The translations under genes and the position numbers were made by a program. This document shows, piece after piece, positions 15,449 through 52,434 of a stretch of DNA of 64,000 bases. Location: contig CAWKJE010000033.1 in the NCBI GenBank assembly GCA_963849735.1, positions 1,239 to 65,238 of the forward strand, given 5' to 3'. The notes beneath the pieces were generated by a model. That model saw only the letters and a list, made by a program, of their open reading frames with translations. It ran no database searches and was not told the origin of the DNA. This DNA is from an uncultured delta proteobacterium. Lineage in GTDB: Bacteria > Myxococcota_A > Polyangia > Fen-1088. Numbering within the stretch: position 1 is the first letter of the stretch; each line of letters starts with the position of its first letter.

Positions 15449-16739
15449 GTGGAAACTCACTTCGCTTCGCGAGGCTGGCGTGTCGCTGATCGACTGCGAC
15501 CACCGCACTCCGCCAGCTTCCGAATCTGGCTACCCCTACATTGCGATTCCGCAGCTCAAGGAAGGCCGGCTTAACCTTGCTGACGTCCGCCACATTTCAT
15601 CCGAGCACTTCGTCGATTGGACCCGCAAGGCCAAGCCCCAGCACCACGACGTGATTCTTTCCCGGCGCTGCAATCCGGGGGAAACAGCCTACGTCCCTGC
15701 GGGTCTTGCATGTGCCCTTGGTCAGAACCTTGTCCTCCTCCGCTCGGACGGAGCTAAGGTCTGGCCGCCATTTCTTCGATGGCTCGTTCGTGGACCGGTC
15801 TGGTGGGAGCAGGTCGGCACGTTCATCAATGTGGGCGCGGTTTTCGACAGTCTGAAGTGTGCGGACATCCCCAACTTCAAGGTGCCACTCCCACCCCTCG
15901 CCGAGCAAAAGGCCATCGCGGCGATCCTCGGGGCGCTAGACGACAAGATAGAGTTGAACCGGCGGATGAACGCGACGCTGGAGGCGATGGCACGGGCGCT
16001 GTTCCAGAGCTGGTTCGTGGATTTCGACCCCGTTCGCGCCAAGCTCGACGGTCGCAAACCCGATGGCCTCGACACGGCCACCGCAGCGCTGTTTCCATCT
16101 GCCTTCCAGGACTCCGCCCTTGGCCCTATTCCACAGGGATGGAAGGTGGCCGCCCTACGTGAGATTGCCGAGGTGTCTTCGGGCGGCACGCCATCCAAAG
16201 CCACGCACGCCTATTGGCACGGAACCATCCCCTGGATCTCCCCCAAGGTCATGACGGGGATACACGTGAATGATTCCGACGACCGCGTCTCGGAAGACGC
16301 AGTTGGCAATGGAACGCGGCTAGTCCCCAAAGGAGCTGTCCTTGTCATGGTTCGAGGCATGGGGCTGCATCAAGGTGTCCGGATTTCGGAGGCTCAGCGC
16401 GACGTCACCTTCAACCAGGACGTGAAGGCCGTCGTCGCGAAGACTGTTCCCGGCACGTTCTTGCTGTATGGGCTCCTCCATGCAGCCCCGATGCTGCTGT
16501 CGAAGGTGCATGCGTCTGGGCATGGCACCGGCGTCCTATCGACGGAATTTCTCGACCAGCTATCGTTCACCGTTCCGCCGTACGACCGCATTGCCGCGCT
16601 GGTACAGCCTCTGGTCACCTTGAATTCCAAGCTAGCCACCAATGATGGCGAGGCTCGCACGCTGGCAACGCTGCGTGACAGCCTGCTTCCTGTCCTTCTC
16701 TCGGGCAAGCTGTCCGTTAGAAGCTCCGCCCGCGCATAG
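15438..16739 (+). CDS. hsdS: Type I restriction-modification specificity subunit
   Basis: Two variable target-recognition regions are separated by the conserved helices '[48 protein letters not shown]' and the C-terminal '...[17 protein letters not shown]'. It overlaps the hsdM stop by 11 nt. Confidence 0.9.
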
Positions 16740-16749
16740 GGGGCCAAGA

Positions 16750-19035: not shown

Positions 19036-19219
19036 GGAGGGAAAACCAAGAGCCTCTTGTTCCCTGGTCGTCCCTGCGGCATTCGACGCTGTCAGTGTGG
19101 GAACATCCGACGGATCAGGGCGCAGTGAGCCCAGCTGGGAGAGTCGCCCGCACGCCTGAGGAAAGGGGAAAAGGGAGCCCGGCCGGAAATCGAGTTACAA
19201 TGCCGCAGGACGATCCGGC

Positions 19220-29694: not shown

Positions 29695-30639
29695 TCACTC
29701 CCGGGGTGCTACGACCACGTGCACGTGCGGAGAACTCAGATTGCTACCCAAGTCGTTCTCCAGCTCAGCCGGGTTTCCGATGCGATGTTCCGGGTCGTAA
29801 ACAAAGCAGACCAGCGTGGCACAATCCGGATGAGCCTTATAGCGTTGAATATCGCTGATCAGCTGCTCCCCGACCTCCTTCGCCCCGAGGTCGTCCCGTG
29901 TCATCTTGACCTCGAGGACAAGCTTGTCCCGCTTCAAGAGGAAGTCCATGCGAGAGCTCTTGCCCGCATAGCTTGGCGTGTATTCCTCGGGTCGAACGTC
30001 ATCGAACTCCAAGCGGAGCAAGGCATGCATGAGGTCCTGCACGTCATACTCGTCGCTGATCGCGAACGGGGCACGCTGATTATGTCGCTTCTGGAGTTGT
30101 CGCGCGAAGACGGGAAAGCGGCGGCATATCCTGACAAGTCGATCGCTCGGGTTCTGCAGACCCGCAGGGCTCTCAGCCGGAAGGGATGGGCGCGGGCAGA
30201 GGTCGACCTGGCTGTCGATGGAGCGAAGACGCGCAACCTTGTCCTGGACCTTCGAGATGCATGAACGGACCCTGGCGCACGGGTCGGACATGAGGTTTAT
30301 TATTCCGCCGCTGACGCCTTGCCGCTTGTACTGATCGAGGAAGCGCGTACCGTCGAAGATGGTGGTCAACAGCGTCTTGTTGTACTCGTCCCACGTGTTC
30401 AGCTGCCTAACGTATTCGTCGTCCGGGAGGGGCCTACCGCCGGACTGCCAAGTCTCCACGAGCGACTCCCCCTGGGCAATTCGCTCAGCTACTTTCGCTC
30501 GGGCTTCCTCCGGAGAAAGGCGAAGACATGGAACTCCGGGTTCCGCGGGTGGAGCAGCGGGTCGCTTTTGTGCCATTGTAAAGGGATAGTACCTTGACCC
30601 ACCGATCATTGTCAGCATGCCGCCGGGAACGCTGGCCAT
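29695..30639 (-). CDS. PD-(D/E)xK nuclease-like protein with unknown N-terminal domain
   Basis: The C-terminal 'DEYDVQDLMHALLRLEF...SSRMDFLLKRDKLVLEVKMTR' fits an E...D...ExK restriction-endonuclease-fold pattern. The true start is uncertain (ATGs at 30639, 30618, 30609 and 30576). Confidence 0.5.
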   Translation of the reverse strand: MASVPGGMLTMIGGSRYYPFTMAQKRPAAPPAEPGVPCLRLSPEEARAKVAERIAQGESLVETWQSGGRPLPDDEYVRQLNTWDEYNKTLLTTIFDGTRFLDQYKRQGVSGGIINLMSDPCARVRSCISKVQDKVARLRSIDSQVDLCPRPSLPAESPAGLQNPSDRLVRICRRFPVFARQLQKRHNQRAPFAISDEYDVQDLMHALLRLEFDDVRPEEYTPSYAGKSSRMDFLLKRDKLVLEVKMTRDDLGAKEVGEQLISDIQRYKAHPDCATLVCFVYDPEHRIGNPAELENDLGSNLSSPHVHVVVAPRE

Positions 30640-36647: not shown

Positions 36648-38750
36648 ATGCGGATGATAGCGAGAATCTTCATCCTGGGGCTCATCACCGCTGTTGCCTG
36701 TTCATACGACGCCAGCCAGTTGGCCGGACCGCCCGCAAGCGGCCTCGACGGCTCTTGGGTTCCGGGAGATGGCGGTCAAAGCGGAATTGGTGGTGAAGGT
36801 GGACTTCCTGTGGTCGATGGTGCGATTGTCATGAGGGATGGTAGCGGAGGCGCTGGAGCGACGGGTATGGGTGGCACAACTAGCGCAGTCGATGCGCCAA
36901 GGACGGGCGAGACGACGAGCACGGGCGACGCGACCGGCACGGACGGAACAGTGGCAGCCGGAGACGCGTCTGGCGCACCTTACAACCCACAATCCTGCGG
37001 CGACGGGGTTGTCAACTTGGGAAAGCAATGCGACACTGGCAATAACGCGCCCAACAAGCCGGACGACGGGTGCTCTCCCACCTGTCAGATCGAGCCGGGC
37101 TGGAGCTGCACGGGCCAACCCAGCGTTTGCACCAAGGCAGTGTGTGGCAACGGTATCGTGGAGGAAGGCGAATCGTGCGACTGCGGAACCGATCCCAAGA
37201 ATCTGCCGAGCGGCTGCGAGGGAGTGAACGGCCTGTTCTACGGCGATGGTAAGGGGTGCTCGAAAACCTGTACCAAGGAGCCGAGCTGCCTGGATAGCAG
37301 CGGGAAGACTCAGGCGTGCTCGACCACCTGCGGCGACGGCAACATCGACCCAGGCGAGCAGTGTGACGACGGAAATCAGGTCGGCGGTGACGGTTGCTCC
37401 TCGACATGCCAGATCGAGGCCGGATGGACCTGCACGGTGCAAACCAAGCAGGATTCGAGCACCTGCCAGTCAGGGTCAGGGCAGTGCCTCGAGCTGCCCG
37501 TCATCTACCGCGACTTTCAGTCGGAGAACATCGCTAACGGCGGTCATCCGGACTTCCCGTTCTACGGCACCCGGTACAATGGGTCGAAGGCCCCAACCAC
37601 CATCTGTGTTCCCAACTCCGGCGGCCCGAGCAAAGGCAATGACTCGACGGCGCGTTGCTGGGGCATCGCGGCAGGCAATCTGCTCAACGGTAAACCGCAA
37701 CCCGGGCCAACCACCACCTGCGCCTGCCAGTTCAGCGACTGGAATATCGGCAACAGCAGCCACATAACCGGAGGGTACACCCAGGCCAACAACGACAGTC
37801 CGCTGTCTGACGGCAACGGCGGCTATCAGGGCATGACGGCGGGCGCGAGCGTGAGCACCATCAGTACGATGGGGGCCTATGCCGGCACCATCACCGGTTA
37901 CACTGCGAGCAGCCCCGGCGGCCCGATATTCAAGGGTACGGTGCCTGCGTACAAGAACGCGGCGAGCTTCAACCAATGGTTCAACGACGATCCCACCGTG
38001 AACCAGAAGTTCGTAACCGTATTGGAGCTTCAATCGATTGGCACCAACGTCTACCAGTTTGCCAGCACATCACACCTGGCCCAGGGGGGCTTCTTCCCCT
38101 TGAACACTCTCAACAAGAGCCAGGACATCCAGTGCATGCTCTGGCCGTACTGGGATCGCTACAACGGAACACCCATCTGGACCACCTGTCAGGGCGACCA
38201 GTATCTGTACCCGCCTCGCGTGGTTCAAAGCGATTGCCCGAACCAGAATCCGCTCAGTAACGGGTGCTGGGTCGACAACGTGACAGGCGCGATGAATGAC
38301 AACTACTTCACCTACGAAGCTCACTACTACTTCATCTATAACGGGACCACGGGCCTTAGCCTGCAGTTCTACGGGGACGACGACCTCTTCGCCTTCATCA
38401 ACGGGGTATTGGTCCTCGACCTCGGGATGACGCACCAGCAGCTACCGGGAAGCGTGACTGTTACCGGAAGCCCGGGCGATGCCCAGGTCACCGAGGGTGG
38501 ATGTCTTGACGCGGCAGGGAATATCACCGGGGTGACGGTGGGCTCGAACGCGTGCTCACCCACCAACTCGACGCCTCCCACGGCAACGACCCCTGATGAT
38601 TTTCGGGTCCATCCCGTCAGTCTTGGGTTGGTCACCGGAAGTACCTACGAGATCGCCATCTTTGGGGCTAATCGGGAGGCCGGTGAATCGGAGCTTGAGA
38701 TTACCCTAAACGGCTACACGACCCAGAAATCGATCTGCACTCCGAACTGA
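36648..38750 (+). CDS. Cys-rich-repeat (DUF4215-type) + fibro-slime domain secreted protein
   Basis: Three 'CGDG/CGNG...(E/Q)CDxG...C' repeats, then 'LPVIYRDF...HPDFPF' and 'FYGDDDLFAFINGVLVLDLG', typical of the fibro-slime/PA14-like domain. It starts 2 nt after the previous stop. Confidence 0.8.
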   Translation: MRMIARIFILGLITAVACSYDASQLAGPPASGLDGSWVPGDGGQSGIGGEGGLPVVDGAIVMRDGSGGAGATGMGGTTSAVDAPRTGETTSTGDATGTDGTVAAGDASGAPYNPQSCGDGVVNLGKQCDTGNNAPNKPDDGCSPTCQIEPGWSCTGQPSVCTKAVCGNGIVEEGESCDCGTDPKNLPSGCEGVNGLFYGDGKGCSKTCTKEPSCLDSSGKTQACSTTCGDGNIDPGEQCDDGNQVGGDGCSSTCQIEAGWTCTVQTKQDSSTCQSGSGQCLELPVIYRDFQSENIANGGHPDFPFYGTRYNGSKAPTTICVPNSGGPSKGNDSTARCWGIAAGNLLNGKPQPGPTTTCACQFSDWNIGNSSHITGGYTQANNDSPLSDGNGGYQGMTAGASVSTISTMGAYAGTITGYTASSPGGPIFKGTVPAYKNAASFNQWFNDDPTVNQKFVTVLELQSIGTNVYQFASTSHLAQGGFFPLNTLNKSQDIQCMLWPYWDRYNGTPIWTTCQGDQYLYPPRVVQSDCPNQNPLSNGCWVDNVTGAMNDNYFTYEAHYYFIYNGTTGLSLQFYGDDDLFAFINGVLVLDLGMTHQQLPGSVTVTGSPGDAQVTEGGCLDAAGNITGVTVGSNACSPTNSTPPTATTPDDFRVHPVSLGLVTGSTYEIAIFGANREAGESELEITLNGYTTQKSICTPN

Positions 38751-39355
38751 ATCCCATGAAGGAGATCCTCCGCGAGACTCTCTGGTTGCCCGCAAATTGG
38801 CCGGTAGTGGTAGGGACCCGCGACCCAACTCAAGGGCCAAGAATAGCAACCTCGCGGGCGTGCTCTTCTTTGTCGAAGGTCGCTGTGTCGCACTGCTCGG
38901 CTGGCCGTGATCGCCTCCGGCGACACCGCCACTTCTTCGTTGGCGCGCGCCATGCGAGCGACAGGGGCGTTCCGGCCTTACCCATGTCAAACCGTCAACC
39001 GCGACGCAACGGAGAGCCGAGGAGCTAGACGGCGCAATCGTGTCTCTCCACGTGCTCTCCCCATCCACCCCTCCAACGACTTTCCGCCCTCGGCCATGGG
39101 TTTCCTAGGGTCTGCGGGTCCCAACCTTTGGCCGCTCTGGGCCCGCCTGCCTCGTCCGGGGCTTGCGTGACAAGCTTCAGGCCGAGGTCGAGCCTGCTCC
39201 CGAGGCGGGCCGTCGCGGGCACGGGCGTGGCCTCACGCATGTCGACGCGCCAAATTATGGACAGCACGTCCATGAATCTATGCGTCAGCGGGCGCGGGTT
39301 ACCGTGGCAAGAACAGGTCCAATCATAGCGGCTTCAATGTCTCTGTGTGTCAGAC

Positions 39356-39463
39356 AGCCAGGCCACCCCAGAAAATTTCTAGCCGCTGACATACCCACCC
39401 CCCGGCACGCTCGACACCGGTTCATAGCCACCGGCGGTTTCTGCAGGGATATAGCTAACTCGG
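39356..39463. repeat. copy 2 of ~107-bp intergenic repeat
   Basis: See 26383-26489. It lies directly 3' of the XRE gene stop (39482). Confidence 0.6.
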
Positions 39464-39481
39464 CTAGCGGGACCGAGGGTG

Positions 39482-39781
39482 CTACGACGACTTGACCTTC
39501 TTCTCGTCGCCCATGCTCCGCCGCTTCGGTCGCCCAGGCCCAGCTTGTTGCGTGCGCGGGTTGCGAAACAGCTCTGTCACGGGGACACCGAATACGCTGG
39601 CGACCTTGACCAGGGACCTGATGGTCAGGTTCTCCCCGCCGCTCTCGATGCGCTGGAGGTACTTGAGCGTGAAGCCAAGGCGCTCTGCCTGCTGCTCCTG
39701 GGTGAGCCTGGCCTTGGCACGTAGCTCTGCCACCCGTCGTCCGACGTTCTTGACCGTGTCGTCGATGTCGTGAGAGCGCAC
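39482..39781 (-). CDS. XRE-family helix-turn-helix transcriptional regulator
   Basis: 'VGRRVAELRAKARLTQEQQAERLGFTLKYLQRIESGGENLTIRSLVKVASVFGV' is a canonical HTH_3/XRE pattern. Confidence 0.8.
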   Translation of the reverse strand: MRSHDIDDTVKNVGRRVAELRAKARLTQEQQAERLGFTLKYLQRIESGGENLTIRSLVKVASVFGVPVTELFRNPRTQQAGPGRPKRRSMGDEKKVKSS

Positions 39782-39893
39782 ACATCGGACGCTGCGACCA
39801 GAGACTCTTGCTTAACACCCACTCTTATGTTGGCATTTAGATCGGCCGAGGATCTGAGGCGGCCACCCGAACCCAATAACCTGGAGGACCACC

Positions 39894-40877
39894 ATGGGTA
39901 GACAGCAGCTGGGTCACGGCACGAAAGTTCTGGCGAAGGCCGAGGAGCTCGTAGAACGCTTCAAGCAGGAACTTAACCTCGGATCGAAGCGGGGGTTCAG
40001 CTTTCTCCTTGTGGGACGAACTGGTGTCGGCAAATCGAGCACGGTCAACTCGCTGATGGGCCAGGATGTAGCGCCGACGGACGCATATCAGCCAATGACT
40101 TCCACGGTCCAGCCCTATCCCCACACGATCAACGGCGTCAAGTTCACGCTGGTGGATACGCCAGGGCTCTGCGACGAACTAGAAGAACAAGGCAAGGACA
40201 AGGAGTACCTGGACCTTATCCAGGCCTCGGTGAATGCCATCGATTCCTTGTGGTACGTCACCCGTCTCGATGATGCCAGGGTCAGCTCCGACGAAAAGCG
40301 CGGTATCAAGATCCTATCCGAGGCCCTCGGAGAAGGAATCTGGAAGCATGCTGTTCTTATCTTCACTTTCGCAGGTAAGGTCGAACCTGAGCGCTACCAC
40401 GAGGCGCTCCGTCGGCGTTCGGAGCTTCTAAGGCAAGAGATTGCTAAATATGCGCCAAAGGAGGCGACGAGCATCCCGTCCGTCGCTGTTGACAATACTA
40501 CCGATACGACCCCGGACGGCGAGGAGTGGCTGGGAGAACTATACACGAAGGTCTTTTCTCGGATCTCCAAAGCAGGAGCCGCGCCATTCTTCCTCGCACT
40601 TGCGAAAGACCTCATGCCCGTTCGTGGCAAAACACCGCTGCTTGCTCCTTCGTCTGCGAGCAGCGATGGGGGAGGAAGGCAACAAGCCACTCCTGAGCCA
40701 CGAATCAAGTTGAACCGGGAGCAGGAAGATGAGGTGAAGCGGACTATCGACGCGAAGATCATTCCAGGGCTGGCGGCGACTGGAGCCACCATCGGAGCGT
40801 ACTTCGGACCTGTCGGTGCGGCGATAGGGGGTGCCGTTGGTGCGGCGCTTGGCCTTGTGGCGTGGCTTTGGGACTAG
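39894..40877 (+). CDS. AIG1/Toc34/GIMAP-like (paraseptin-type) GTPase with C-terminal glycine-zipper membrane segment
   Basis: GGAGGA lies 7 nt upstream of the ATG. G1 'GRTGVGKSS'; G3 'LVDTPGL'; 'VLIFTFAGK' in place of NKxD, as in the AIG1/Toc clade. C-terminal 'GLAATGATIGAYFGPVGAAIGGAVGAALGLVAWLW'. Confidence 0.7.
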   Translation: MGRQQLGHGTKVLAKAEELVERFKQELNLGSKRGFSFLLVGRTGVGKSSTVNSLMGQDVAPTDAYQPMTSTVQPYPHTINGVKFTLVDTPGLCDELEEQGKDKEYLDLIQASVNAIDSLWYVTRLDDARVSSDEKRGIKILSEALGEGIWKHAVLIFTFAGKVEPERYHEALRRRSELLRQEIAKYAPKEATSIPSVAVDNTTDTTPDGEEWLGELYTKVFSRISKAGAAPFFLALAKDLMPVRGKTPLLAPSSASSDGGGRQQATPEPRIKLNREQEDEVKRTIDAKIIPGLAATGATIGAYFGPVGAAIGGAVGAALGLVAWLWD

Positions 40878-40891
40878 CTACGCGCCGCGGG

Positions 40892-41467
40892 ATGAAACGA
40901 TTCCTTCTCTTGGGGAGAACCGGGGTTGGGAAGTCCAGTCTGGTCAATTCGACATTTGGCGGCAATCCAGCCAAGACTGATGCCTACGACGCCTGCACCA
41001 AGATTGTCGAGTATTTCGCGCAGGGTACGTCATGGGGCAACATCACACTGATTGATACTCCAGGCATGGCCGAATCGGACCGCAATCGGGCATACCTTAG
41101 AATGATAAAACGCCAGGTCGATCTCGCATCGGTGGACGCCGCCATTTATGTGACCCGTCTCAACGAGACCAGGTTCTATCCGTCAGAGAAGGAGACCATT
41201 GCCAAAATCTGCAATGTCCTTGGTACTGACGTCTGGGTGCGATCAATACTGGTTATGACCTTCGCTGCTAGCGTGGACAATGCGGAGAGGCCCAAGAGGG
41301 TCGACCGCCGATGGTCGGACGTGCACGACTACGTAAAGCAGCAACTCCCCTACGGTTGGTGTGGCTTCGACAAGGTTCTCGTCGTTGACAACGTCGTCAC
41401 TGGTTGGCAACCTGGTCTCGAGTCCATTGCCAAGGTGCTTTCAGCGCGTGTCGGGCAGAGACGGTAG
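40892..41467 (+). CDS. AIG1/Toc34/GIMAP-like GTPase paralog (no membrane segment)
   Basis: G1 'GRTGVGKSS', G3 'LIDTPGM', and 'ILVMTFAAS' at the G4 position. It starts 14 nt after the previous stop. Confidence 0.7.
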   Translation: MKRFLLLGRTGVGKSSLVNSTFGGNPAKTDAYDACTKIVEYFAQGTSWGNITLIDTPGMAESDRNRAYLRMIKRQVDLASVDAAIYVTRLNETRFYPSEKETIAKICNVLGTDVWVRSILVMTFAASVDNAERPKRVDRRWSDVHDYVKQQLPYGWCGFDKVLVVDNVVTGWQPGLESIAKVLSARVGQRR

Positions 41468-41599
41468 CTACTAGCCGGTTCAGGCTGCGCCCACCTCCCG
41501 CAATTTGCTGCGCACCGCAAAACCCACCCTAAAGTGGGTATAAGGATCTAGCAGGGAAATCTTTGCGGGTGGCCCTGTCCCGTCGCTGGCCACCCGTTC

Positions 41600-42094
41600 T
41601 TGACGGGATACGTGTGCCTCGACGGTCCACATCCCGCGAGAAAGGCATTGCTATGTCCATTTCCCGACCATTACGAACGCACACGCATCGACGGCAAAGA
41701 ACATCCCGCCGATGCGGTCATCGACAAGTTGCCCGCCGTTGTTCGTGCCCGGCGCCGCGTGCTGGGGCTGTTCGAAAAGATGCTCCCATCGACCAAGGAC
41801 CAGAGGGCTCTCCGGGCCTACGCGGATGCTCATGGCCAGTACCAAACGTTGCGGGAGGGTTTGTTCTACGATGCCGGCTACGAGCATGGGTTGATTCGTG
41901 CCCGTCAAGACCATCTGGGGAGGAGGACAGGTAAAGATTCAGCGGCTCATGATCTCCTGAGGGAAATCAGCCAGCTCGTCTTGTCCGCCGGGTTACCTCA
42001 GAACCGCGTGGTGATGCTGTTGCTCGAAGCTGCGTGGGCGCTGGTTCCCGGCATCTCCCAGCGGGAAAGCAAGCTCTCCCGACACCATCGATGA
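41600..42094 (+). CDS. hypothetical protein
   Basis: 164-aa ORF with a non-ATG start in the track and a helical-looking sequence. No motif recognised; the start is uncertain. Confidence 0.3.
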   Translation: MTGYVCLDGPHPARKALLCPFPDHYERTRIDGKEHPADAVIDKLPAVVRARRRVLGLFEKMLPSTKDQRALRAYADAHGQYQTLREGLFYDAGYEHGLIRARQDHLGRRTGKDSAAHDLLREISQLVLSAGLPQNRVVMLLLEAAWALVPGISQRESKLSRHHR

Positions 42095-42151
42095 GATTGC
42101 TCGTATAGCGCGACTGCGAGAATCGGTTAAGCGCGAGACTGGCCGCCATGC

Positions 42152-42604
42152 CTAGATCCCGCATCCCCAGATGGAAGTGGTTATGCCCGTGGTGCAGGAG
42201 CAGGTCTGGGGGCCGCCAGGGTAGTACGGGTCCTGGGTGGGCACGTAGACTACACAACCGAGTGGGTAGCGGAGGGACTTGTCTACTCCGCCGCCATGCC
42301 AGTCGAAGATGGAGATGTCCGGAGCAGCGCAACCGCCGTCGTCTCCGGGTGGCAGGGGTGCACAGTTAATGCACGGTTCACATGGCAATGGGAGGCTGTA
42401 GCTACAGCTGTTCGCGCCGGCATCGAATGCTTCGTTGATGCAATTGCCGCCTATGGCGTTGTTAGCGCTGCCCCCAACGCCGCCTGAACCTGTCTCACTA
42501 AAGCCGCCCGCTGCTCTGGCATCGCCAGGCGAAACGCCACTGCGCAAGCTGGTTTGCTCGCAGGAGAGCACGGCAAGAAGTCCGAGTACGGTCACTGCAC
42601 GCAT
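42152..42604 (-). CDS. small Cys-rich secreted lipoprotein
   Basis: An internal ATG at 42604 gives 'MRAVTVLGLLAVLSCEQ' (lipobox). The mature part has many Cys. The longer ORF to 42958 overlaps the neighbouring gene's start region. Confidence 0.5.
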   Translation of the reverse strand: MRAVTVLGLLAVLSCEQTSLRSGVSPGDARAAGGFSETGSGGVGGSANNAIGGNCINEAFDAGANSCSYSLPLPCEPCINCAPLPPGDDGGCAAPDISIFDWHGGGVDKSLRYPLGCVVYVPTQDPYYPGGPQTCSCTTGITTSIWGCGI

Positions 42605-42972
42605 GAAGGAATCCCCGTGTTCGAAAGAGCCTGCAAGCAGCGGTCCGGGGCGAAGGCCGAGAAGCGCCGGTCCTTGTACCACGATCCTGTCGGCATCGAC
42701 AACTATGTTGGCGGGTAAACCAATCCAGAGGCAGCTCCAGGTCCAAGGGGACTTGGCTGCAAGAACGCTGGGAGGCGCTGAGCCTCCCTTGCTGGAGACC
42801 TGGGATGTGGTGGTGGGCCTTTCTCTCCGCCGGCTGTAAGCGAGCCCCTGCACACGCAAGAGGGCTCCCAGGCTCGCCACTGGGATAGGCGAGTCACCGC
42901 CACCAAACGCGATGGTCATGACCTGCCCGACGTGTGCCTCGTTTTCACGAAAACCCAATCGAAAGGAAATCC

Positions 42973-43860
42973 ATGCAGAACCAACTCGATCTCATCCGAC
43001 GTAACACGAACCATGGTGGTCAGCCCCTCGGAGATCTGCTCTGGTGGGAGCTTGCCAGCGCTTCTGTCTCCCGCCCCGATTTGACCAAGCTCTGGGTCCA
43101 GGGCGGCTTGCCAATAGAGCTTCTCCCCGACGAGCCGACCGCCGAGAAGGCCTTCAAGACGGCCGCACGTGAAACGCAGGTTGGCCATCCCGACCGGCTG
43201 CTCCGCCTCGCCATGGAGAACGAGCAAGAAACGGTCTTTGGCATCGTCCACGAGCAACGTGATGGCAGCGGTGGCTTGCAATACCACCAGGAGGCCCGCA
43301 TCACGCTCGATCACAGCAGCGACAGCGTCCAATCCGACCAGCCCGGTGACATCATGGTCCAGAAGCTGATGGCTCGCTTCGAAGAGCTGAAGACGCTGCA
43401 CACGACCGACGACATCCGCCGGACCATCACCAAGACGCTCGACTCGTTTGCAGCCGTGACGTTACGACAAATGGGTGGCGTGTACTGGGTACCTGCTCCG
43501 TATGCGTCTTCTCTCCGCCGCTTGCAGACCGTCATAGAGCAGCTGGGCAAATCCAAGATGCATCTCGTTCCGATCACAGCCACCAAAGAAGGCCAGGCAG
43601 CGCTGGCACAGGCGGCCAAGGCCAACATCGAGGAGGAGCTGGCGGCATTGCAGACAGAGATGCAGCAGTTCTTGCAGACGCCACCCGACCGGGCGTCAAC
43701 GCTCATGCGCAGGCTTGAGCACTTCGATGACCTGCGCCGCAGGGCGAGCCTGTACCAGACGGTCTTGCAAGCTCAGGTCGAGGGCCTGGCGGAGAACCTG
43801 ACAGCAATGGAGCAGCAGGTGCGCAGCCTGCTCGACGAGAAAAGGGCCAAGGCGGCCTAG
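42973..43860 (+). CDS. hypothetical protein, upstream partner of the MoxR/VWA pair
   Basis: The ATG at 42973 is preceded by AAGGAA. 295 aa. Central 'LRQMGGVYWVPAPY' and a C-terminal coiled coil. No catalytic motif recognised. Confidence 0.55.
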   Translation: MQNQLDLIRRNTNHGGQPLGDLLWWELASASVSRPDLTKLWVQGGLPIELLPDEPTAEKAFKTAARETQVGHPDRLLRLAMENEQETVFGIVHEQRDGSGGLQYHQEARITLDHSSDSVQSDQPGDIMVQKLMARFEELKTLHTTDDIRRTITKTLDSFAAVTLRQMGGVYWVPAPYASSLRRLQTVIEQLGKSKMHLVPITATKEGQAALAQAAKANIEEELAALQTEMQQFLQTPPDRASTLMRRLEHFDDLRRRASLYQTVLQAQVEGLAENLTAMEQQVRSLLDEKRAKAA

Positions 43861-43934
43861 GAAACACACACAGCAACCCTGATGGGGCAGTCCTGGCAAC
43901 GGGGCTGCCCCTTCGCATTTCCAAGGAGATCTAC

Positions 43935-45071
43935 ATGAACCAGAACATCACGACCCTACGCAACGAACTGAACAGCATCTTCATTGAACGCGGCACCGTC
44001 ATCGATGGCTGCCTGGCTTCTGTCCTGGCTGGCGAGCACGTCCTGCTCCTTGGCCCACCCGGCACCGGGAAGAGTGCATTGGCCCGTGCCATCGCACAGG
44101 CATTCGGTGCCAGGTACTTCGAGACCTTGCTCAACCGATTCACCGTTCCCGAAGAGCTCTTCGGGCCGGTGAGCTTGAAAGCCCTGGAGCAGGACCAGTT
44201 TGTCCGCCTGACCGCAGGCAAGTTGCCCGAGGTCGAGGTGGCATTTGTAGACGAAATCTTCAAGGCCAGCTCGGCGATCTTGAACACGCTGCTGACCATC
44301 GCCAACGAGCGCGTGTTTCACAACGGTGGCGTGCCCGTCGCCTGTCCCCTGGTGACGTTGTTCGCCGCATCGAACGAGCTGCCCGAAGGCCAGGAACTCG
44401 AGGCTTTGTTCGACCGGTTCATGGTCCGTTTCAGCCTCGGCTACATGGTCCGTGAGGCATCGTTCAGGACCGTCGTGACCGGTGATGAACCTGCCATCAC
44501 GACCAGGCTCGACATGGCTGCGCTCGGTCAAGCCCAGTGGGCATCCCAGCAAGTCAAGGTCCCCGACGCCACCTACGACGCCACGATCGCCATTCGTGAC
44601 GCCTGCAGGACCGATGGCATCATTGCCAGTGACCGCCGCTGGAAGAAGCTCATCAAGCTCATCAAGGCCACGGCGTATCTCGCAGGTGAGAAGACAGCAG
44701 CGCCCGAGGACCTGCACATCCTGGCCGACGCGCTCTGGCGTGACCCAAAGGACCGTCCCAAGGTCGCACGCATCGTCGGCCGCATTGCCGACCCGACCAG
44801 TGCCCAGGCACAGGAGATTCTCGATGCTGCCCGGGAGCTGACGGGCAAGGTCGCAGGGCTCAAGAGCGGGGATAGGAAAATCTATCTCACCGAGGCCGCC
44901 AATGCGCTCGGGCAGTTCCAGGCCCAGAACCAAAAACTCGCCACCTTGGCCAAGAGTGCTGGTCGCAGGGCCAAGACGGTCATTGCCGACGTCAGCGCAG
45001 AGATCACCGCTCTGCATGGCGAGCTGGCCAGGACCGTCAGCGCAGGGCTGGGCCTTGGGGGCACGCGATGA
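43935..45071 (+). CDS. MoxR/RavA-like AAA+ ATPase
   Basis: AAGGAG RBS. Walker A 'LLGPPGTGKSALARAI'; 'FETLLNRFTVPEELFGP'; Walker B 'VAFVDEIFKASSAILNTLLTIANER'. These closely follow the RavA/MoxR pattern. Confidence 0.85.
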   Translation: MNQNITTLRNELNSIFIERGTVIDGCLASVLAGEHVLLLGPPGTGKSALARAIAQAFGARYFETLLNRFTVPEELFGPVSLKALEQDQFVRLTAGKLPEVEVAFVDEIFKASSAILNTLLTIANERVFHNGGVPVACPLVTLFAASNELPEGQELEALFDRFMVRFSLGYMVREASFRTVVTGDEPAITTRLDMAALGQAQWASQQVKVPDATYDATIAIRDACRTDGIIASDRRWKKLIKLIKATAYLAGEKTAAPEDLHILADALWRDPKDRPKVARIVGRIADPTSAQAQEILDAARELTGKVAGLKSGDRKIYLTEAANALGQFQAQNQKLATLAKSAGRRAKTVIADVSAEITALHGELARTVSAGLGLGGTR

Positions 45072-46342
45072 AGCGGATCATCTATGACATTGGTCGCTGG
45101 GCCTGCTTTCTCCACCGTGAAGCCCGTGGTCTAGAGATGGCCTCACCCAAGGACGCTCCTATCCAGCGTTTCGAGGACGAGCTGTTCGAGAAGCTCTACG
45201 CAGGTGAGGCCGAGGCGCTGCCCGAGAAGCATCGAGACGCCAGGTGGGCTACCTGGGCGAGCGCCATCCACGACGCCTGCGAGAAGCTCCCAGCATTCAA
45301 CCGGCTGGCCGATGAGACCCGTGGGGATGCCGATGCTGCTGCCCTGGGCGTAGAGGAGCTGCTCAAGGAACTCCAGCCCATCATCGACGAGCAGAACGCA
45401 AACCAGCCACCGGAGGAGAACATCCGCAAGCTGGTCCGTGAGGGCGCAGAGGCTGCATCGGCGGCGCTCGAAGAATATCGGGATGCGGTCGAAGGTCTCG
45501 GGCAGGTCATGTTCGGCGGCGGCAAGGGCAATCACGAGAGGCAGGCGTTGGATGACAAGAAGGTGGGTCTTGCCCGGCGCTTGCGTGGCGACCACAGGCT
45601 CAAGCGCATTGCCCAGCTGGCAGGTCGGTTCACCCGCATCGGCCAGCAGAAGCGCAGGTCCAAGGTCAAACACGGGGCGGAGGAGATATGCGACGTCGAG
45701 CTGGGGAATGACATTGGTCGGCTCTTGCCCGTCGAGCTGGTAAAGCTGCGGCACCCACGTCTACACGCACTGGCTCTGCGCGATCTGCTCGAACGCAAGG
45801 CCATGCAGTACGCGGTCACCGGGAAAGAAAAACTGGGCAAGGGTCCCCTGGTGCTCTTGCTCGACCGCTCGTGGTCGATGGAAGGTCCAGCGGACACCTG
45901 GTCCGTCGCAGTGGCCCTGGCATTGCTCGGGCTTGCCCAGGTCGAGCGTCGGACATTCGCCCTCGTGGCATTCACCGACCAGGTTATCTATGAAGCCGTC
46001 ATCAAGCCAGGCGAGAGGCTCGACGAAGAGGCCTTGAACCTGACGTGCAACGGTGGAACGAGCATCGATGCGGCGGTATCGAGGGGCCTGGACATCATCG
46101 AGCGCAATTTAGGAGCGCTGAACGAGGCAGACCTGGTGCTGGTAACAGATGGGTGTTCCGATTCCGACCGAGCACCTGAGCTGCGAAGGAGGGCAAAATC
46201 GCTGGGCGTAACGGTGCTGGGCATAGGCATAGGTGTGGCCAAGGAGCAGCTCGAACCATGGGCCGATGCGATCGAGACCATCACCAGCCTCGAGAGCCTC
46301 GGTGAACAAGTAGCGGATGCCCTGTTCTCAGGCACCGCGTGA
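45068..46342 (+). CDS. von Willebrand factor A (VWA) domain protein, ViaA-like partner
   Basis: The start overlaps the ATPase stop (ATGA). MIDAS 'LLLDRSWSMEG' and 'LVLVTDGCSD' in the C-terminal half. Confidence 0.8.
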   Translation: MKRIIYDIGRWACFLHREARGLEMASPKDAPIQRFEDELFEKLYAGEAEALPEKHRDARWATWASAIHDACEKLPAFNRLADETRGDADAAALGVEELLKELQPIIDEQNANQPPEENIRKLVREGAEAASAALEEYRDAVEGLGQVMFGGGKGNHERQALDDKKVGLARRLRGDHRLKRIAQLAGRFTRIGQQKRRSKVKHGAEEICDVELGNDIGRLLPVELVKLRHPRLHALALRDLLERKAMQYAVTGKEKLGKGPLVLLLDRSWSMEGPADTWSVAVALALLGLAQVERRTFALVAFTDQVIYEAVIKPGERLDEEALNLTCNGGTSIDAAVSRGLDIIERNLGALNEADLVLVTDGCSDSDRAPELRRRAKSLGVTVLGIGIGVAKEQLEPWADAIETITSLESLGEQVADALFSGTA

Positions 46343-46367
46343 ACCCAAAGCAAGAACGGAGACTCAC

Positions 46368-46475
46368 ATGACCAAGAAGAAACTGGTCCAAATCCTGCTC
46401 GGCACCGGCAAGGCGCTGATCATCGTAGCCCACGTCATCGCCCGGACCATGGTCCGCCGATTGCCGTTGAAGTAG
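46368..46475 (+). CDS. possible 35-aa hydrophobic peptide
   Basis: 'MTKKKLVQILLGTGKALIIVAHVIARTMVRRLPLK', with GGAG 8 nt upstream of the ATG. Too short to validate by composition. Confidence 0.25.
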   Translation: MTKKKLVQILLGTGKALIIVAHVIARTMVRRLPLK

Positions 46476-46563
46476 CACGCATCACAACCAAGAAGCCCCC
46501 CTCGGTCGCCATGGCCTTGGGGGGCTTCGCCGTTTTCGAGAACAACCAACGAAGGAGACAGCC

Positions 46564-47247
46564 ATGAAGAAAGAGACCATAGAAATCCTGACCCGACCGT
46601 TCGACAAGAGCCTCATCAAGCACCGTCAGGGCCACGACGGCAAGCAGCTCGACTACGTGCCGGTCCAGCACTACGTGGACAGATTGAACGAAGGCTTCGA
46701 GCATGACTGGTCGTTCGAGCTGACCAGCCGTGAGATCATCGGCGAGCAAATCGTCGTCGAGGTCAAAATCACCGCTGCTGGCCTGACCAAGACCGGCCTC
46801 GGTGGTGCGGCCATTACACGTAGCGATGACAAGAAGACCATTATCGCTCTGGCCGATGACATCAAGACGGCTGAAGCCGATGCCCTGAAACGTGCGTGCC
46901 GATTGCTCGGGGTGGGTGCCGAGCTGTACGCCAGCGAACAGGACGACGCCGGAGTCATCAGCAGTCCCCCGCCCGCCTTTGCGACTCAGCATCATGTTGG
47001 TCCCCATTCGCTACCGCCGAGCCCAATGCCACCACGGGAGCGGTTGACATCGGCCCAGCTGAATGCAATCAAGACAATCGCACGCAAGCAAGGGCTGGAC
47101 CCCGCCGATGTCCGACGTGACATCAAGGCCAGGTACGGTATCGAGGTCGAGTATCTCACAAAGCGTCAAGCCAGCGAGGTCATCTCAGCCCTCGACGCCA
47201 ACAGGTCCAGCCACGGTAGCAACGGCCAGCACGCACAGGCAGGGTGA
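46564..47247 (+). CDS. Rad52/Sak-type single-strand annealing protein
   Basis: AAGGAG RBS. 'LTRPFDKSLIKHRQGHDGKQLDYVPVQHYVDRLNEGFEHDWSFE' and 'TAEADALKRACRLLGVG' fit the Rad52/22 annealase fold pattern. Confidence 0.7.
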   Translation: MKKETIEILTRPFDKSLIKHRQGHDGKQLDYVPVQHYVDRLNEGFEHDWSFELTSREIIGEQIVVEVKITAAGLTKTGLGGAAITRSDDKKTIIALADDIKTAEADALKRACRLLGVGAELYASEQDDAGVISSPPPAFATQHHVGPHSLPPSPMPPRERLTSAQLNAIKTIARKQGLDPADVRRDIKARYGIEVEYLTKRQASEVISALDANRSSHGSNGQHAQAG

Positions 47248-47251
47248 CGCC

Positions 47252-48043
47252 ATGACCACCACGCTCACGCAGATGCGTGATGGCCTGCACGTATCGGTCT
47301 CGCAGATCAAGTGCTACCTGCGATGCCCACGCCAGTACCAGATGCGCTACGTCCTCGGTGCCGAGCCCGAGTTCACACCAGCCAACTTGGTCCTGGGCAG
47401 TGCCGTCCACGAAGGCCTGGCGGCGTTCTACAGGTCGGTCATGAATACGTCGGAGTCACCCGAGTTCGATACGTGCATGGCCGCCTTCCACGCTACGTTG
47501 GTAGGCTTTCGCAAGAGCAGCCTGCCCATCAAAGACGGTGACGACATCGAGACCCAGGGCGGGGCGTTGCTCAAGGTCTTCTACGAGAGCACGTACCAGC
47601 ACCCGCCCAGGGTGGTCGGTGTTGAGGTGCCATTCACCATCGACCTGGCCGACCCGGTAACCGGTGAGATACTTGAAGAACGTTTGGTGGGTGCCCTCGA
47701 CCTGGTCGTCGAGCAGGACAAGAAGAACATCGTCGTCGAGCACAAGACGGCGGCCAGGAAATGGCCCGAGGACCAAATCAAGCACGACATCCAGCTGTCG
47801 GCCTACAAGCTGGTGGCGAGGGCACTGGGCCTTGGCGACGTGCGGCTAAGGCTGCAGGTCATGACCAAGACCAAGAAGCCAGCGATGATCGTGGAGAACA
47901 CGGACCGCACAGACCGGGACGAGCGGAAGTTTCTGGAAACCGTGGTTGGGGTGTTACGAGCCATCGATGCCCAGGCCTTCTTCCCGGTCCGCAACGGGAT
48001 GTGCGGTGGGTGTACGTTCCAGAGGCGGTGTGAGAGTAGCTGA
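47252..48043 (+). CDS. Cas4/RecB-like PD-(D/E)xK exonuclease with Fe-S Cys cluster
   Basis: N-terminal 'CYLRCPRQY'; 'ALDLVVE...IVVEHKT' (D...ExK); 'QLSAYKL' (QhxxY); C-terminal 'CGGCTFQRRC' (CxxCx5C). The ATG at 47252 is 4 nt after the annealase stop. Confidence 0.75.
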   Translation: MTTTLTQMRDGLHVSVSQIKCYLRCPRQYQMRYVLGAEPEFTPANLVLGSAVHEGLAAFYRSVMNTSESPEFDTCMAAFHATLVGFRKSSLPIKDGDDIETQGGALLKVFYESTYQHPPRVVGVEVPFTIDLADPVTGEILEERLVGALDLVVEQDKKNIVVEHKTAARKWPEDQIKHDIQLSAYKLVARALGLGDVRLRLQVMTKTKKPAMIVENTDRTDRDERKFLETVVGVLRAIDAQAFFPVRNGMCGGCTFQRRCESS

Positions 48044-50512: not shown

Positions 50513-51433
50513 CTACCCAAGGTAAATTTGCTCATTGTGCCACCTCAGAAACTCCGGCGCGGGTCGATACTTGTCGATCTCAGGTAGCACCTTGAGCGGC
50601 CTACCATCCAACGCGTAGTACTCCTTGCCGTTCTGGAACTCTTCTCGGATGCGCTTGCTGATGATCACATGGTGGTCGGGAGTAACGGTGAAATAGCCCT
50701 GGTCGAAGAGGATGTGGAGGTCCGAGCGGAGGAGAAGCCCGTTCTGGATGCGGTGGGGGCCCTTCTCAGCGTACGGCTTGATGTGCGCTGCCTCAAGCAC
50801 TGGCAGGGTCTTCTCCCCAGTCAGGGCGCATCGTCGTTGGTAGGTCTCGGTCACCAGCACGCGGAATGCCCCTTGGCCAAGCCGAGGCCTGACCATCAGC
50901 GGGTTACCGTAGCGCGCTTCATCGTCAAAGGTTGAGTCGCCGATCGGCACGCCGGGCGCTGCCAAACGGAGGCGCAGGAGCTCAACGAGCTGCCTACCCT
51001 CGGTGGTTTCGGACTCGTAGGATTTTCCGACGACGATGTTCTTCCTGAAGGTTTCTGGGGCGGCAATCCAGTCATCCTGCTCGAGGAAAAAGGGTTGCGT
51101 GAGGATGATGCAGCCGATAACGGGATCGTGGCCTGCCCCGTCTCGCCGATACTTGCGGATGCGTGCCTGGAACTCGGCCAGGTCCCTTACGCCGTTGTTC
51201 AGGCCGAAGGCTTTCCATGCCAGCGATGCCGGCAGGAACGATTGGCGCACGAAGTATCCACCGCCGACGACGTAGTTGTCAGGGTGGTGGAGCTTAAACA
51301 GGAACAATCCCTCTTCGGACAACACCTTGAAGTTCGTGGCACCGCCTGGCTGCCAGAAGTTGACCTCCTCGGGAGCCTGGGCCTTCAGCTGGTCGAACCA
51401 GTCGCGGTCGGTGATGCCGATCCAAATCTTCAT
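50513..51433 (-). CDS. HNH_2-type endonuclease with N-terminal putative PUA-like (EVE/ASCH-like) reader domain
   Basis: The C-terminal 'RCALTGEKTLPVLEAAHIKPYAE...NGLLLRSDLHILFDQGYFTV' is the HNH_2 (restriction-type HNH) pattern. The N-terminal ~130 aa 'MKIWIGITDRDWF...NFWQPGG' is a separate domain. Confidence 0.75.
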   Translation of the reverse strand: MKIWIGITDRDWFDQLKAQAPEEVNFWQPGGATNFKVLSEEGLFLFKLHHPDNYVVGGGYFVRQSFLPASLAWKAFGLNNGVRDLAEFQARIRKYRRDGAGHDPVIGCIILTQPFFLEQDDWIAAPETFRKNIVVGKSYESETTEGRQLVELLRLRLAAPGVPIGDSTFDDEARYGNPLMVRPRLGQGAFRVLVTETYQRRCALTGEKTLPVLEAAHIKPYAEKGPHRIQNGLLLRSDLHILFDQGYFTVTPDHHVIISKRIREEFQNGKEYYALDGRPLKVLPEIDKYRPAPEFLRWHNEQIYLG

Positions 51434-51444
51434 GCTTGGCCTTC

Positions 51445-52434
51445 CTACCTCACCGCCATGAGCAGGACCTTGTCTCGATGCCAGTCCAAGAAACTCTTCT
51501 GGCCCGAGGTGAAGTCGCCGACGTTCACGGACCTCTCGGTTTCCACGCCCATCTTCTGCAGCGACGGCTTGTGGGCCACGGGGCTAATGATTAGCCTGCC
51601 TGAATCTTCGAAGCCGATGAACCCCCTGTCGAACAGATGGTCGATGCTGGCCGTTAGCAACAACCCGTTTTCTCCGTCGAGCCGCTCCTCGTTGCTCGAA
51701 TCCCGCCAGGGCTTGCAGTGGCTGGCCACGAGGTGGGTCAGCCTGTCTACCCCGGTGATGCGGCACCGTCGCTCATGCTGTAACACACGCCGCTTGAACT
51801 CACCTTGGCCGCGCCGTGACCGCACGATGGCTTCGCGCTCGGTTTCGGGGATGGAGGCGTCCTCTGCGACGGCTTGCTCCAGCCTATGCTCCCAGTAGTC
51901 CAGGTCGTCCCCGGTGGGGTGGAGGGGTGCCTGGTCATCTGCTGGCACGCTCACGGTCGCAGGCTGGTGAAGCACGGGCTCCGCCTCTGCACCGATGAGG
52001 CCAGCCAGGACCTCCGCGAACTGCTGCGGAATCTCGGTCAGGTAGACGCTCTGGAGGCCGTCACCGTTGGCCCGCAAGGGCGAGTACTTGGTGGGCAACA
52101 GCGAAGCCAGGATGCCCATGTGGTCCTTCGGGCGGACCTGGTGCCGGAGCTGGACGAAATTGACCCTGACCTTCCAGCCGATGTTCTCCCAGTTCATTCC
52201 GGCGGTGCCAAACTCGATGGGCTTGGGGCTTTCCCAGCAGTAGGACTGCGCGACGCCGATGGCGAATATCTTGGTATCGACGAACGAGAAGACGATGTCG
52301 CCGATGGCAACCTCACGCATGAACTCATAGAAGTGGTTACGCGCGCCGTTGGCGTTGCGCTTGGGCGACCATAGGTACCCCCCCGCAATCTCATGGCGGT
52401 ACGTCTGGTTCTGGTTGACCCACCAGTAGCGCAA
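51445..52434 (-). CDS. HNH_2-type endonuclease with a different N-terminal putative modified-DNA reader-like domain
   Basis: C-terminal 'RCRITGVDRLTHLVASHCKPW...NGLLLTASIDHLFDRGFIGF'. N-terminal 'MRYWWVNQNQTYRHEIAGGYLWSPKRNANGARN', a type seen at the N-termini of Type IV-like enzymes. It lies 11 nt upstream of the other HNH gene. Confidence 0.75.
   Translation of the reverse strand: MRYWWVNQNQTYRHEIAGGYLWSPKRNANGARNHFYEFMREVAIGDIVFSFVDTKIFAIGVAQSYCWESPKPIEFGTAGMNWENIGWKVRVNFVQLRHQVRPKDHMGILASLLPTKYSPLRANGDGLQSVYLTEIPQQFAEVLAGLIGAEAEPVLHQPATVSVPADDQAPLHPTGDDLDYWEHRLEQAVAEDASIPETEREAIVRSRRGQGEFKRRVLQHERRCRITGVDRLTHLVASHCKPWRDSSNEERLDGENGLLLTASIDHLFDRGFIGFEDSGRLIISPVAHKPSLQKMGVETERSVNVGDFTSGQKSFLDWHRDKVLLMAVR

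Follow-up and report, generated by a model that had tools for sequence, protein, structure and literature searches.

Two neighbouring GTPase genes beside a phage-like block raise the question of which unit they belong to, and whether that unit acts in conflict with invading genetic elements. The genes, gtpA and gtpB, are located on the plus strand of a 64,000-nucleotide (nt) stretch of DNA from an uncultured delta proteobacterium (contig CAWKJE010000033.1, positions 1,239 to 65,238), which is called the window below and whose first letter is position 1. They lie between a divergent XRE-family regulator gene and an open reading frame (ORF) of 164 amino acids (aa), orf164, and an earlier note on this DNA had taken the whole of 39482-42094 as one candidate GTPase-based conflict module. 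As judged from sequence comparison, gtpA-gtpB alone is a self-contained, conserved operon-like two-gene unit, which is inherited together in several phyla. A conflict or exclusion function of this pair is plausible but unproven, and we give it an even chance.

GtpA (39894..40877) was identified as a Toc34/AIG1-type GTPase of 327 aa by Pfam AIG1, profile-versus-PDB comparison, AlphaFold2 (AF2) with Foldseek, and family alignment. An N-terminal helix precedes its G domain (about aa 34-240), after which come a variable linker, an amphipathic helix and the glycine-zipper tail; the motifs of the G domain are G1 (41-49), G3 (88-91), the arginine-finger motif RLDDARV (124-130), FTFA (157-160) and VDN (199-201). 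GtpB (40892..41467, Pfam AIG1) is a soluble paralogue of 191 aa and has the G domain only, without the N-terminal helix of GtpA, without anything past the G domain and without a membrane tail. The two adjacent paralogous ORFs of the earlier note were found again in the ORF list, with 14 nt between the stop of gtpA at 40877 and the ATG of gtpB at 40892. The same ATG was chosen as the start when an identical metagenomic contig was gene-called independently, and an alternative GTG is present at 40862. The two proteins share 39% identity over 145 aa (E=1e-29). Both contain GRTGVGKSS and DTPG, as had been reported, and at the position of NKxD they read IFTFA (GtpA) and VMTFA (GtpB), aligned with LTHAQ of Toc34.

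These motifs are widely conserved. Across 85 sequences of family A (GtpA-like) and 30 of family B (GtpB-like), G1, the switch-I Thr, DTPG, RLDxxR(V/F), T-F/R/Y-A in place of NKxD, and (D/S)N are kept; the B family by itself conserves G1, the switch-I Thr, DTPG, RL(N/D)ETRF, TFA and DN. The arginine-finger motif is thus kept in A (as RLDxxRV) as well as in B, and the arginine finger of the pea Toc34 dimer, R133 (in DRLDAYRV), aligns to the invariant R129 of GtpA. Since all the GTPase motifs are conserved in B, GtpB is, by its motif set, predicted to be an intact enzyme rather than a pseudo-GTPase. The AF2 model of GtpA has a mean predicted local distance difference test score (pLDDT) of 81 and a predicted TM score (pTM) of 0.82; the G domain is mostly above 85, the linker (246-264) is variable and has low pLDDT, and the amphipathic helix after it is conserved in the GtpA family (PRI.LN..Q....K..ID). 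Besides, the GC content at third codon positions (GC3) is 0.65 in the GTPase genes, compared with 0.83 in the XRE gene and 0.73-0.85 in the flanking genes, and the low value in gtpA and gtpB suggests acquisition.

For the family placement of the two proteins, the earlier note had named the AIG1/Toc/GIMAP clade and not Era/Obg, and the searches agree with it. With Pfam AIG1 (PF04548), whose gathering cut-off is 27, GtpA reaches 86.8 bits and GtpB 57.8 bits, and in NCBIfam the chloroplast Toc159 and Toc34 models rank first for both proteins (E=1e-22 to 1e-15). GtpA is not a member of Toc34 proper (TIGR00991; 79.0 bits vs a trusted cut-off of 421.55), and the Toc159 model (TIGR00993) gives 78.7 bits vs a cut-off of 660.7; because these scores are far under the trusted cut-offs, the bacterial proteins are relatives and no orthologues. 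A GtpA family profile built from 22 members matched Toc33/Toc34 in PDB with E=5e-29 over the entire G domain, followed by Chlamydomonas Toc34 (7e-25) and Toc120/90 (2e-17), and, more distantly, GIMAP7 (2e-16), EngA (2e-14), septins (1e-7 or worse) and GIMAP2 (5e-6). It turned out similarly for the fold: in the Foldseek search of PDB with the GtpA model, ranks 1-15 are Toc34/Toc33 (E=1e-10, about 28% identity, about 240 aligned columns), ranks 16-30 are GIMAP1/2/5/7, and immunity-related GTPases (IRGs) and septins come after. On this sequence and fold comparison, GtpA and GtpB are placed in the AIG1/Toc/GIMAP clade, nearest to Toc34/Toc33 and then to the GIMAPs, and far from the housekeeping GTPases. 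The latter (Der/EngA, Era, MnmE, YsxC, YlqF, RsgA) were rejected as an identity, with 20-37 bits against cut-offs of 116-953 and matches to the N-terminal half of the G domain only.

How far does the likeness to Toc34 go? Toc34/Toc33 (PDB 1h65, 3bb1, 3bb3) is the best match in both sequence and fold over the whole soluble domain of GtpA, and the two have in common the N-terminal helix, G1, DTPG, T-x-A for NKxD, (E/D)N and the arginine finger (psToc34 R133, GtpA R129). Like Toc34, GtpA ends in a C-terminal hydrophobic segment, the predicted anchor, and as Toc34 goes together with Toc159, GtpA comes with a second paralogous GTPase. Unlike Toc34, GtpA is bacterial, with no chloroplast, and scores 79 vs 421 bits with the family model; it has a glycine-zipper tail, perhaps folded as a hairpin, whereas that of Toc34 is a plain single helix. 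Its partner GtpB is a minimal G domain, unlike the large Toc159. GIMAP2 and GIMAP7 share Pfam family and fold with GtpA and GtpB, and the tandem paralogue clusters in the GtpA family are like those of the GIMAPs, which are vertebrate and immunity-associated; the GIMAPs are more distant from GtpA than Toc34 is (2e-16 for GIMAP7 and 5e-6 for GIMAP2 with the family profile). In work by Schwefel et al. from 2010 and 2013, a membrane-anchored and a soluble GIMAP reportedly dimerise across the G interface, with hydrolysis stimulated.

A pair of membrane-associated GTPases is also present in Eleos, the dynamin-like anti-phage system LeoA-LeoBC, and the LeoBC, LeoB and LeoA models of PADLOC match the N-terminal half of the GtpA G domain (3e-10). 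Unlike the Leo proteins with their 550-600 aa, GtpA and GtpB (327 and 191 aa) have neither dynamin stalk nor helical bundle. Membership in Eleos was rejected, as the matches are partial (profile positions 57-161 and 441-477) and the best families are AIG1/Toc, not dynamin.

The earlier note had also described a glycine zipper in the tail of GtpA only. This hydrophobic segment (40755..40874, plus strand; GtpA aa 288-327, IIPGLAATGATIGAYFGPVGAAIGGAVGAALGLVAWLWD) is a predicted membrane anchor or helical hairpin, and the C-terminal end of the protein reads GATIGAYFGPVGAAIGGAVGAALGLVAWLWD. In the alignment of 22 sequences, Gly 297, 308, 316 and 320 are invariant and Gly 301, 305 and 312 near-invariant, so that the (GxxxG)n pattern is plainly present and conserved. 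A Gly-rich C-terminus is near-universal in the family, being found in most of the 85 family-A ORFs (80 genomes). The proposed check with glycine-zipper profiles had a divided outcome: the pattern itself holds, and no curated Pfam glycine-zipper model (Gly-zipper_Omp, Gly-zipper_YMGG and others) matched GtpA at E<=0.01. The only tail-type match in Pfam is C19orf12 (18 bits, below the cut-off of 30), and positions 441-477 of the PADLOC LeoB model match the tail at E=4e-9, which is maybe compositional. In the AF2 model the tail forms helices at 294-303, 306-310 and 314-326. Thus the C-terminus of GtpA is a predicted membrane segment, of one helix or a hairpin, and the glycine zipper could equally be an anchor or an effector.

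If gtpA and gtpB are a unit, they should travel together, and generally they do so in a part of the family. The word-indexed search gave at least 366 proteins at E<=1e-5 among 8,000 scored candidates, and the exhaustive search gave 366 clusters (50% identity) at E<=1e-30. Named members come mostly from filamentous cyanobacteria (Nostoc, Calothrix, Microcoleus, Tolypothrix), while other carriers include Anaerolineae, Longimicrobium, Thermoanaerobaculia, Poribacteria, Saprospiraceae, Gemmatales, Methylotuvimicrobium, Massilia and more. Co-occurrence and neighbourhoods were counted at 80 genome loci with GtpA relatives (L001-L080). In 29 of them an orthologue of GtpB with about 190 aa (130-173 bits) directly follows the long gene, and the remaining loci contain the long gene alone or tandem long paralogues. 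The spacer between A and B is -41 to +17 nt in 26 of the 29, and the pairwise identities of A and B are correlated with r=0.90 (r=0.79 without near-identical pairs), in line with the expectation that the two paralogues are conserved together. What's more, the pair is present in all four of the closest metagenomic relatives whose contigs were examined (P0002, P0006, P0010, P0019). Arrays of 3-4 tandem paralogues were also found, the copy number ranging from 1 to 4. Since the pair is spread over several separate clades and phyla, its distribution points to transfer as a cassette.

In the window, the borders of the unit can be read from related contigs. The XRE-family helix-turn-helix (HTH) regulator gene (39482..39781, minus strand, 99 aa; Pfam HTH_3 E=4e-11) is divergent and begins 112 nt upstream of gtpA, just as the earlier note had said. 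With blastn, window positions 39521-39843 correspond to positions 3278-3600 of the metagenomic contig L091 (76% identity), and the match ends about 50 nt before the ATG of gtpA. The nucleotide homology with L091 stops at 39843 and restarts at 41537. The right junction (41536/41537) was also found in L093 and L097, and at 41509 in L098; from 39843 to 41509/41537 there is no nucleotide homology with L091, L093, L097 or L098, and both flanks are conserved. The place of the GTPases is taken by other genes in these relatives. For example, the XRE protein of L091, which is 64% identical over its full length and has the same divergent position, faces two unrelated genes (344 and 325 aa), which lack a PADLOC match and a recorded Pfam family. 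In L093-L096, an HKD-Snf2 helicase and a type IIG restriction-modification enzyme immediately precede the same junction, while an Lcl_C protein (L097) or small ORFs and a hydrolase (L098-L103) lie to its left in others. Because the homology of the flanks breaks at these points and the genes between them differ among relatives, the segment 39844..41536 (plus strand, about 1.7 kb), with gtpA and gtpB only, is by this comparison exchangeable cargo between conserved flanks.

The converse was found at the 80 GTPase loci elsewhere, where no homologue of the XRE protein, orf164, DUF6744 or VWA is present; the one MoxR match (L017, 2e-05) is weak and probably reflects generic AAA similarity. A module of three or four genes, XRE-GtpA-GtpB-orf164, was therefore rejected, as the flanks are kept in elements that lack the GTPases, and the GTPase genes elsewhere lack these flanks. 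The module once drawn over 39482-42094 is reduced to the pair: the XRE gene and orf164 are flanks of the element, outside the homology gap at 39843-41537.

On the left side, the XRE-proximal intergenic part (39782..39843) is conserved with L091 and is, from its position, a likely divergent promoter/operator site. Between the XRE gene and gtpA, the 112 intergenic nt showed no inverted (operator) repeats, the sigma-70 consensus scan found no site, and terminator-like sites were at chance level. The XRE protein may control the pair in this window, as its position would allow.

On the right side, the cargo slot ends at a non-coding leader or promoter region of the orf164-like operon (41537..41647, plus strand), which is conserved in the window, L091, L093, L097 and L098. 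This leader of about 110 nt (GGTATAAG...GCGGGTGGCCCTGTCCCGTCGCTGGCCACCC) is conserved in at least five related contigs and contains a perfect 8-bp inverted repeat (GGGTGGCC/GGCCACCC). Its RNA fold is more stable than 200 of 200 shuffles (z=-3.3), and an Rfam search of 38700-43000 gave no match; its role might be that of an operator, of a leader RNA or of a recombination junction. Next to it, orf164 (41600..42094, plus strand) is a shortened member of a family of about 200 aa and the first gene of the operon of the neighbouring element. The ORF stands for a genuine family: 45 homologues were found (51-99% identity, most 51-67%), and no Pfam family is listed for any of them. In gene calls its start is TTG 41648, which gives 148 aa, while the ORF from 41600 has 164 aa. 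It matches only residues 6-145 of a 202-aa homologue, with the start lost via a 33-nt deletion and about 55 C-terminal residues gone. In relatives, the orf164-like gene is followed by several small ORFs and then by DUF6744-bpMoxR-VWA-Rad52-like. In the window, a Cys-rich lipoprotein-like ORF on the minus strand (42152-42604) replaces the small ORFs, and L097 has the same variant with 92% identity.

Further downstream, the block of DUF6744, bpMoxR ATPase, VWA protein, Rad52-like annealing protein and PD-(D/E)XK exonuclease (42934..48043, plus strand) was assigned with Pfam and PHROGs. The PHROGs matches are phrog_19600 for MoxR (2e-74), phrog_24053 for VWA and phrog_1218/69 for the exonuclease; the Rad52-like protein and the PD-(D/E)XK protein correspond to annealing-protein and exonuclease families of phages. 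The block shares 74-76% nt identity with the metagenomic contigs L091 and L093, and homologues of its MoxR occur in 29 phage records and 80 plasmid records. No tRNA was found in the window, nor were integrase or structural phage genes, and ten extra ORFs (26-32 kb and 56-64 kb) had no Pfam match. The flanking block is probably a phage-like mobile element, a prophage or an integrative element alike being possible. The earlier note had put the pair at the edge of a mobile-element-like block, and a conserved phage-like element does lie next to it; by sequence comparison, the pair occupies a slot between the XRE regulator of this element and the leader of its early-type operon.

Does the pair function in conflict? 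The domain-fusion scan covered the best 150 family representatives, 68 of which are long forms. Their N-terminal extensions are TIR_2 (17 of 68), HSP70-like (8), cold-shock domain (5), EAD11 (4), EAD7 (3) and CHAT (3), with caspase, FHA and XRE HTH found once each, and the GTPase plus glycine-zipper module is retained in all the fused long forms. Examples are P0171, P0222, P0234, P0251, P0201 and P0173, which cover TIR, TIR with cold-shock, CHAT/caspase, HSP70-like, EAD7/EAD11 and one XRE HTH. A degenerate G domain fused in tandem with an intact G domain was seen in P0003 and P0168. Besides, a divergent NB-ARC STAND ATPase adjoins A and B in 9 loci (L019, L021, L024, L025, L028, L037, L038, L045, L058). 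This ATPase has about 460-500 aa and is encoded on the opposite strand just upstream of the pair (144 nt in L028), in Microcoleus and related cyanobacteria.

EADs are adaptor domains of NTP-dependent conflict systems, and AIG-subfamily GTPase effector domains have been reported in the vWA-MoxR iSTAND ternary conflict systems (Kaur, Burroughs, Iyer, Aravind 2020, PMC7159879). The pair is like these effectors in that the same GTPase clade is found in bacteria and relatives of GtpA carry EAD7/EAD11, TIR and CHAT/caspase; the taxonomic range is alike too, weighted to filamentous cyanobacteria with some Anaerolineae. Unlike them, GtpA and GtpB stand alone: neither has an adaptor domain, and the 80 loci show no link with MoxR/vWA. 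Taken as points for a conflict role, the TIR, CHAT/caspase and EAD7/EAD11 fusions, the cargo slot, the STAND neighbour and the tandem arrays make it plausible.

If the pair does have such a role, its mechanism might be as follows. GtpA would be held in the cytoplasmic (inner) membrane by its tail, and GtpB would be recruited to it via GTP-dependent dimerisation across a Toc34-type G interface. The arginine fingers would act in trans, each completing the active site of the partner, as in Toc33/34 homodimers and in the combination of anchored GIMAP2 with soluble GIMAP7. The nucleotide state might then govern the clustering of the glycine-zipper helices and by this means membrane integrity or access. 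On an invader cue, the membrane would be perturbed or entry blocked, leading to exclusion or abortive infection, with benefit to the element and the host. Transcription probably begins in the conserved XRE-proximal region 39782-39843, and therefore the XRE protein may gate the pair here.

Several observations weigh against a conflict role. PADLOC 2.0 has no model for this composition and gives partial Leo matches only, which also agrees with the statement of the earlier note that no named defence system is composed in this way. The family had no match in 50,697 phage records, one in 72,556 plasmids and one weak match in IMG/VR. Ordinary genes (NadA, PntB, GGT, ligase, FeoB, succinate dehydrogenase) make up most of the neighbourhood at the 80 loci, and the pair elsewhere stands beside FeoB, succinate dehydrogenase or DNA ligase genes. 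Toxin or defence genes are scattered among the representative neighbours (PIN, 5 of 150; Uma2, 4 of 150; a single DpdF and a single ThsB). On the suggested mapping to defence islands or prophages the evidence is indirect and divided: the cargo slot in the window speaks for it, and the lack of phage matches, the single plasmid and the mostly ordinary neighbours speak against it. What's more, the long gene, present there as an A-alone orthologue, keeps a fixed place behind a phosphoketolase-like gene in 21 loci, an adjacency that reflects either old synteny or a link in function. The forms fused to TIR/EAD may be a branch with a function of its own, the interaction of A and B and the membrane location are predictions, and control by the XRE protein is argued from position, the promoter and operator scans having found no site. 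The glycine zipper may be a mere tail anchor, as in Toc34 and the GIMAPs. Finally, we found in the literature no account of a stand-alone pair of a tail-anchored and a soluble GTPase and no experiment on the pair.

The 21 loci with the phosphoketolase-like gene (L007, L008, L029, L031, L035, L036, L041-L044, L046, L049-L056, L059, L064) are 20 cyanobacterial ones and one Thiothrix metagenome-assembled genome. The gene, a divergent member of the phosphoketolase/transketolase-like type with about 740 aa, is directly upstream on the same strand.

Many of these points fit a physiological membrane GTPase switch without a conflict role, that is, a bacterial counterpart of the Toc34 type whose copy in the window would be a passenger of the mobile element. 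Such a switch might serve in membrane protein targeting, in envelope or thylakoid remodelling or in a stress response, with its natural home in cyanobacteria and other complex bacteria. We consider it possible but rather unlikely. It is favoured by the overwhelmingly chromosomal location of the family, by its metabolic and housekeeping neighbours and by the synteny with the phosphoketolase-like gene, which is held across cyanobacterial orders; the tail-anchored architecture is like that of Toc34, and the closest solved relatives, Toc33/34, are receptors, not toxins. However, the distribution is patchy and crosses phyla, the number of tandem paralogues varies from 1 to 4, TIR, CHAT/caspase and EAD fusions occur, a STAND ATPase is the neighbour in 9 loci, and the copy in the window occupies a slot for variable cargo in a phage-like element. 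Such traits typify accessory or conflict genes, not core physiology.

Glycine-zipper peptides are known as membrane toxins, and the pair could accordingly be thought of as a toxin-antitoxin-like addiction module which stabilises the element, with the GtpA tail as membrane toxin and GtpB or the XRE protein as restraint. An XRE-type regulator adjoins the cargo and has weak matches to toxin-antitoxin antitoxin models (HipB-like TIGR03070, MqsA-like), among the neighbours of the family PIN toxin genes are the most frequent (5 of 150), and P0173 is a fusion of an XRE HTH to the GTPase. We nevertheless hold this to be highly improbable. The XRE gene is divergent and so not co-transcribed, it is orthologous to that of the GTPase-less element in L091, and its homologue is found in none of the 80 other loci; about half of the family members are without B, so B cannot be an obligatory antitoxin; and both GtpA and GtpB are intact enzymes by their motifs. 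In its specific form, a type II toxin-antitoxin system with the XRE protein as antitoxin, the idea was rejected on the divergent orientation, the other cargo faced in L091 and the absence from the 80 loci.

Also highly improbable, and the least likely of these readings, is that GtpA and GtpB serve as effectors for the adjacent MoxR-VWA genes in the manner of the vWA-MoxR iSTAND ternary systems: the bpMoxR and VWA genes do lie 2.5-5 kb downstream on the same strand, AIG-subfamily GTPase effectors are reported in vWA-MoxR systems (PMC7159879) and EAD7/EAD11 adaptor domains are fused to some family members, but the DUF6744-MoxR-VWA block occurs at 74-76% nt identity in L091 and L093 with no GTPase there, VWA homologues are missing from all 80 GTPase loci and the sole MoxR match is the weak, probably generic one in L017 (2e-05), GtpA and GtpB contain no EAD or other adaptor domain, and a separate gene and the conserved leader lie in between, so that both membership in the ternary systems and a conserved MoxR-VWA link were rejected for want of an EAD and of co-conservation.

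The window, with about 60% GC, contains further genes of interest outside the slot and the block. Upstream of the pair, the stretch at 13-31 kb of the window is accessory- or defence-rich: a type I restriction-modification locus (13853-22141; hsdM, hsdS, hsdR), an IS66-family transposase (22980-24737) and a DpnII/MboI-type restriction endonuclease (29695-30639) are located there. A gene for a 797-aa AAA_13 ATPase stands between hsdS and hsdR, which recalls the way PrrC/RloC anticodon nucleases lie inside type I loci. At 50513-52434 (minus strand) are two HNH_2 endonuclease genes, paralogous and in tandem; nearly all the other tested ORFs in the lower-GC part at 48-64 kb are without a Pfam family, and PHROGs gave one weak match among the four scanned. 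A DUF4215 protein and a Ser/Thr kinase are also encoded in the window; together with the GC content, they make a myxobacterial host probable.

Whatever the function, the likeness to Toc34 leads to a broader idea, which we hold as speculative and unlikely: the tail-anchored plus soluble pair might be a bacterial, largely cyanobacterial prototype of Toc34/Toc159 and, more distantly, of AIG1/GIMAP, and would be a GTP-gated membrane immune or exclusion module. The G domain of pea Toc34 (PDB 1h65) gives 60-82 bits against the bacterial family A (L001-L080), with 67.5 bits for GtpA, while in the same scoring scheme Chlamydomonas Toc120/90 (Toc159-family) reaches 55 bits, GIMAP7 34 and EngA 27. The bacterial family thus outscores every other non-Toc34 protein compared with pea Toc34. 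Similarity is not phylogeny, and a transfer from eukaryote to bacterium would be possible as well. In the literature, Aravind's group regards AIG-type GTPases as ultimately bacterial in origin (PMC8195603), and bacterial members are mentioned in passing as predicted effector or switch domains (PMC7159879, PMC8195603, PMC3417536). Recent plant and algal papers describe AIG1-like genes as absent from prokaryotes, or the TOC GTPases as inventions of eukaryotes or as septin-derived with YihA as outgroup (PMC12845241; 10.64898/2026.03.28.715002). Our literature search for a cyanobacterial AIG1 or Toc34-like protein found nothing.

In conclusion, new accessory or defence genes may usefully be sought in the slot that the XRE gene and the conserved leader enclose. 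Should the pair prove to protect against phages or plasmids, it would make up a novel kind of compact immune system with just two genes, and as the same type of GTPase works in plant (AIG1/IAN) and animal (GIMAP) immunity, it would be another immune link from bacteria to eukaryotes. The pair also offers a tractable bacterial model for the membrane dimerisation of Toc34- and GIMAP-type GTPases, which is debated for the chloroplast import receptors. Besides, with a large, mostly cyanobacterial Toc34-like family at hand, the “mysterious” origin of the TOC GTPases becomes testable by phylogeny.

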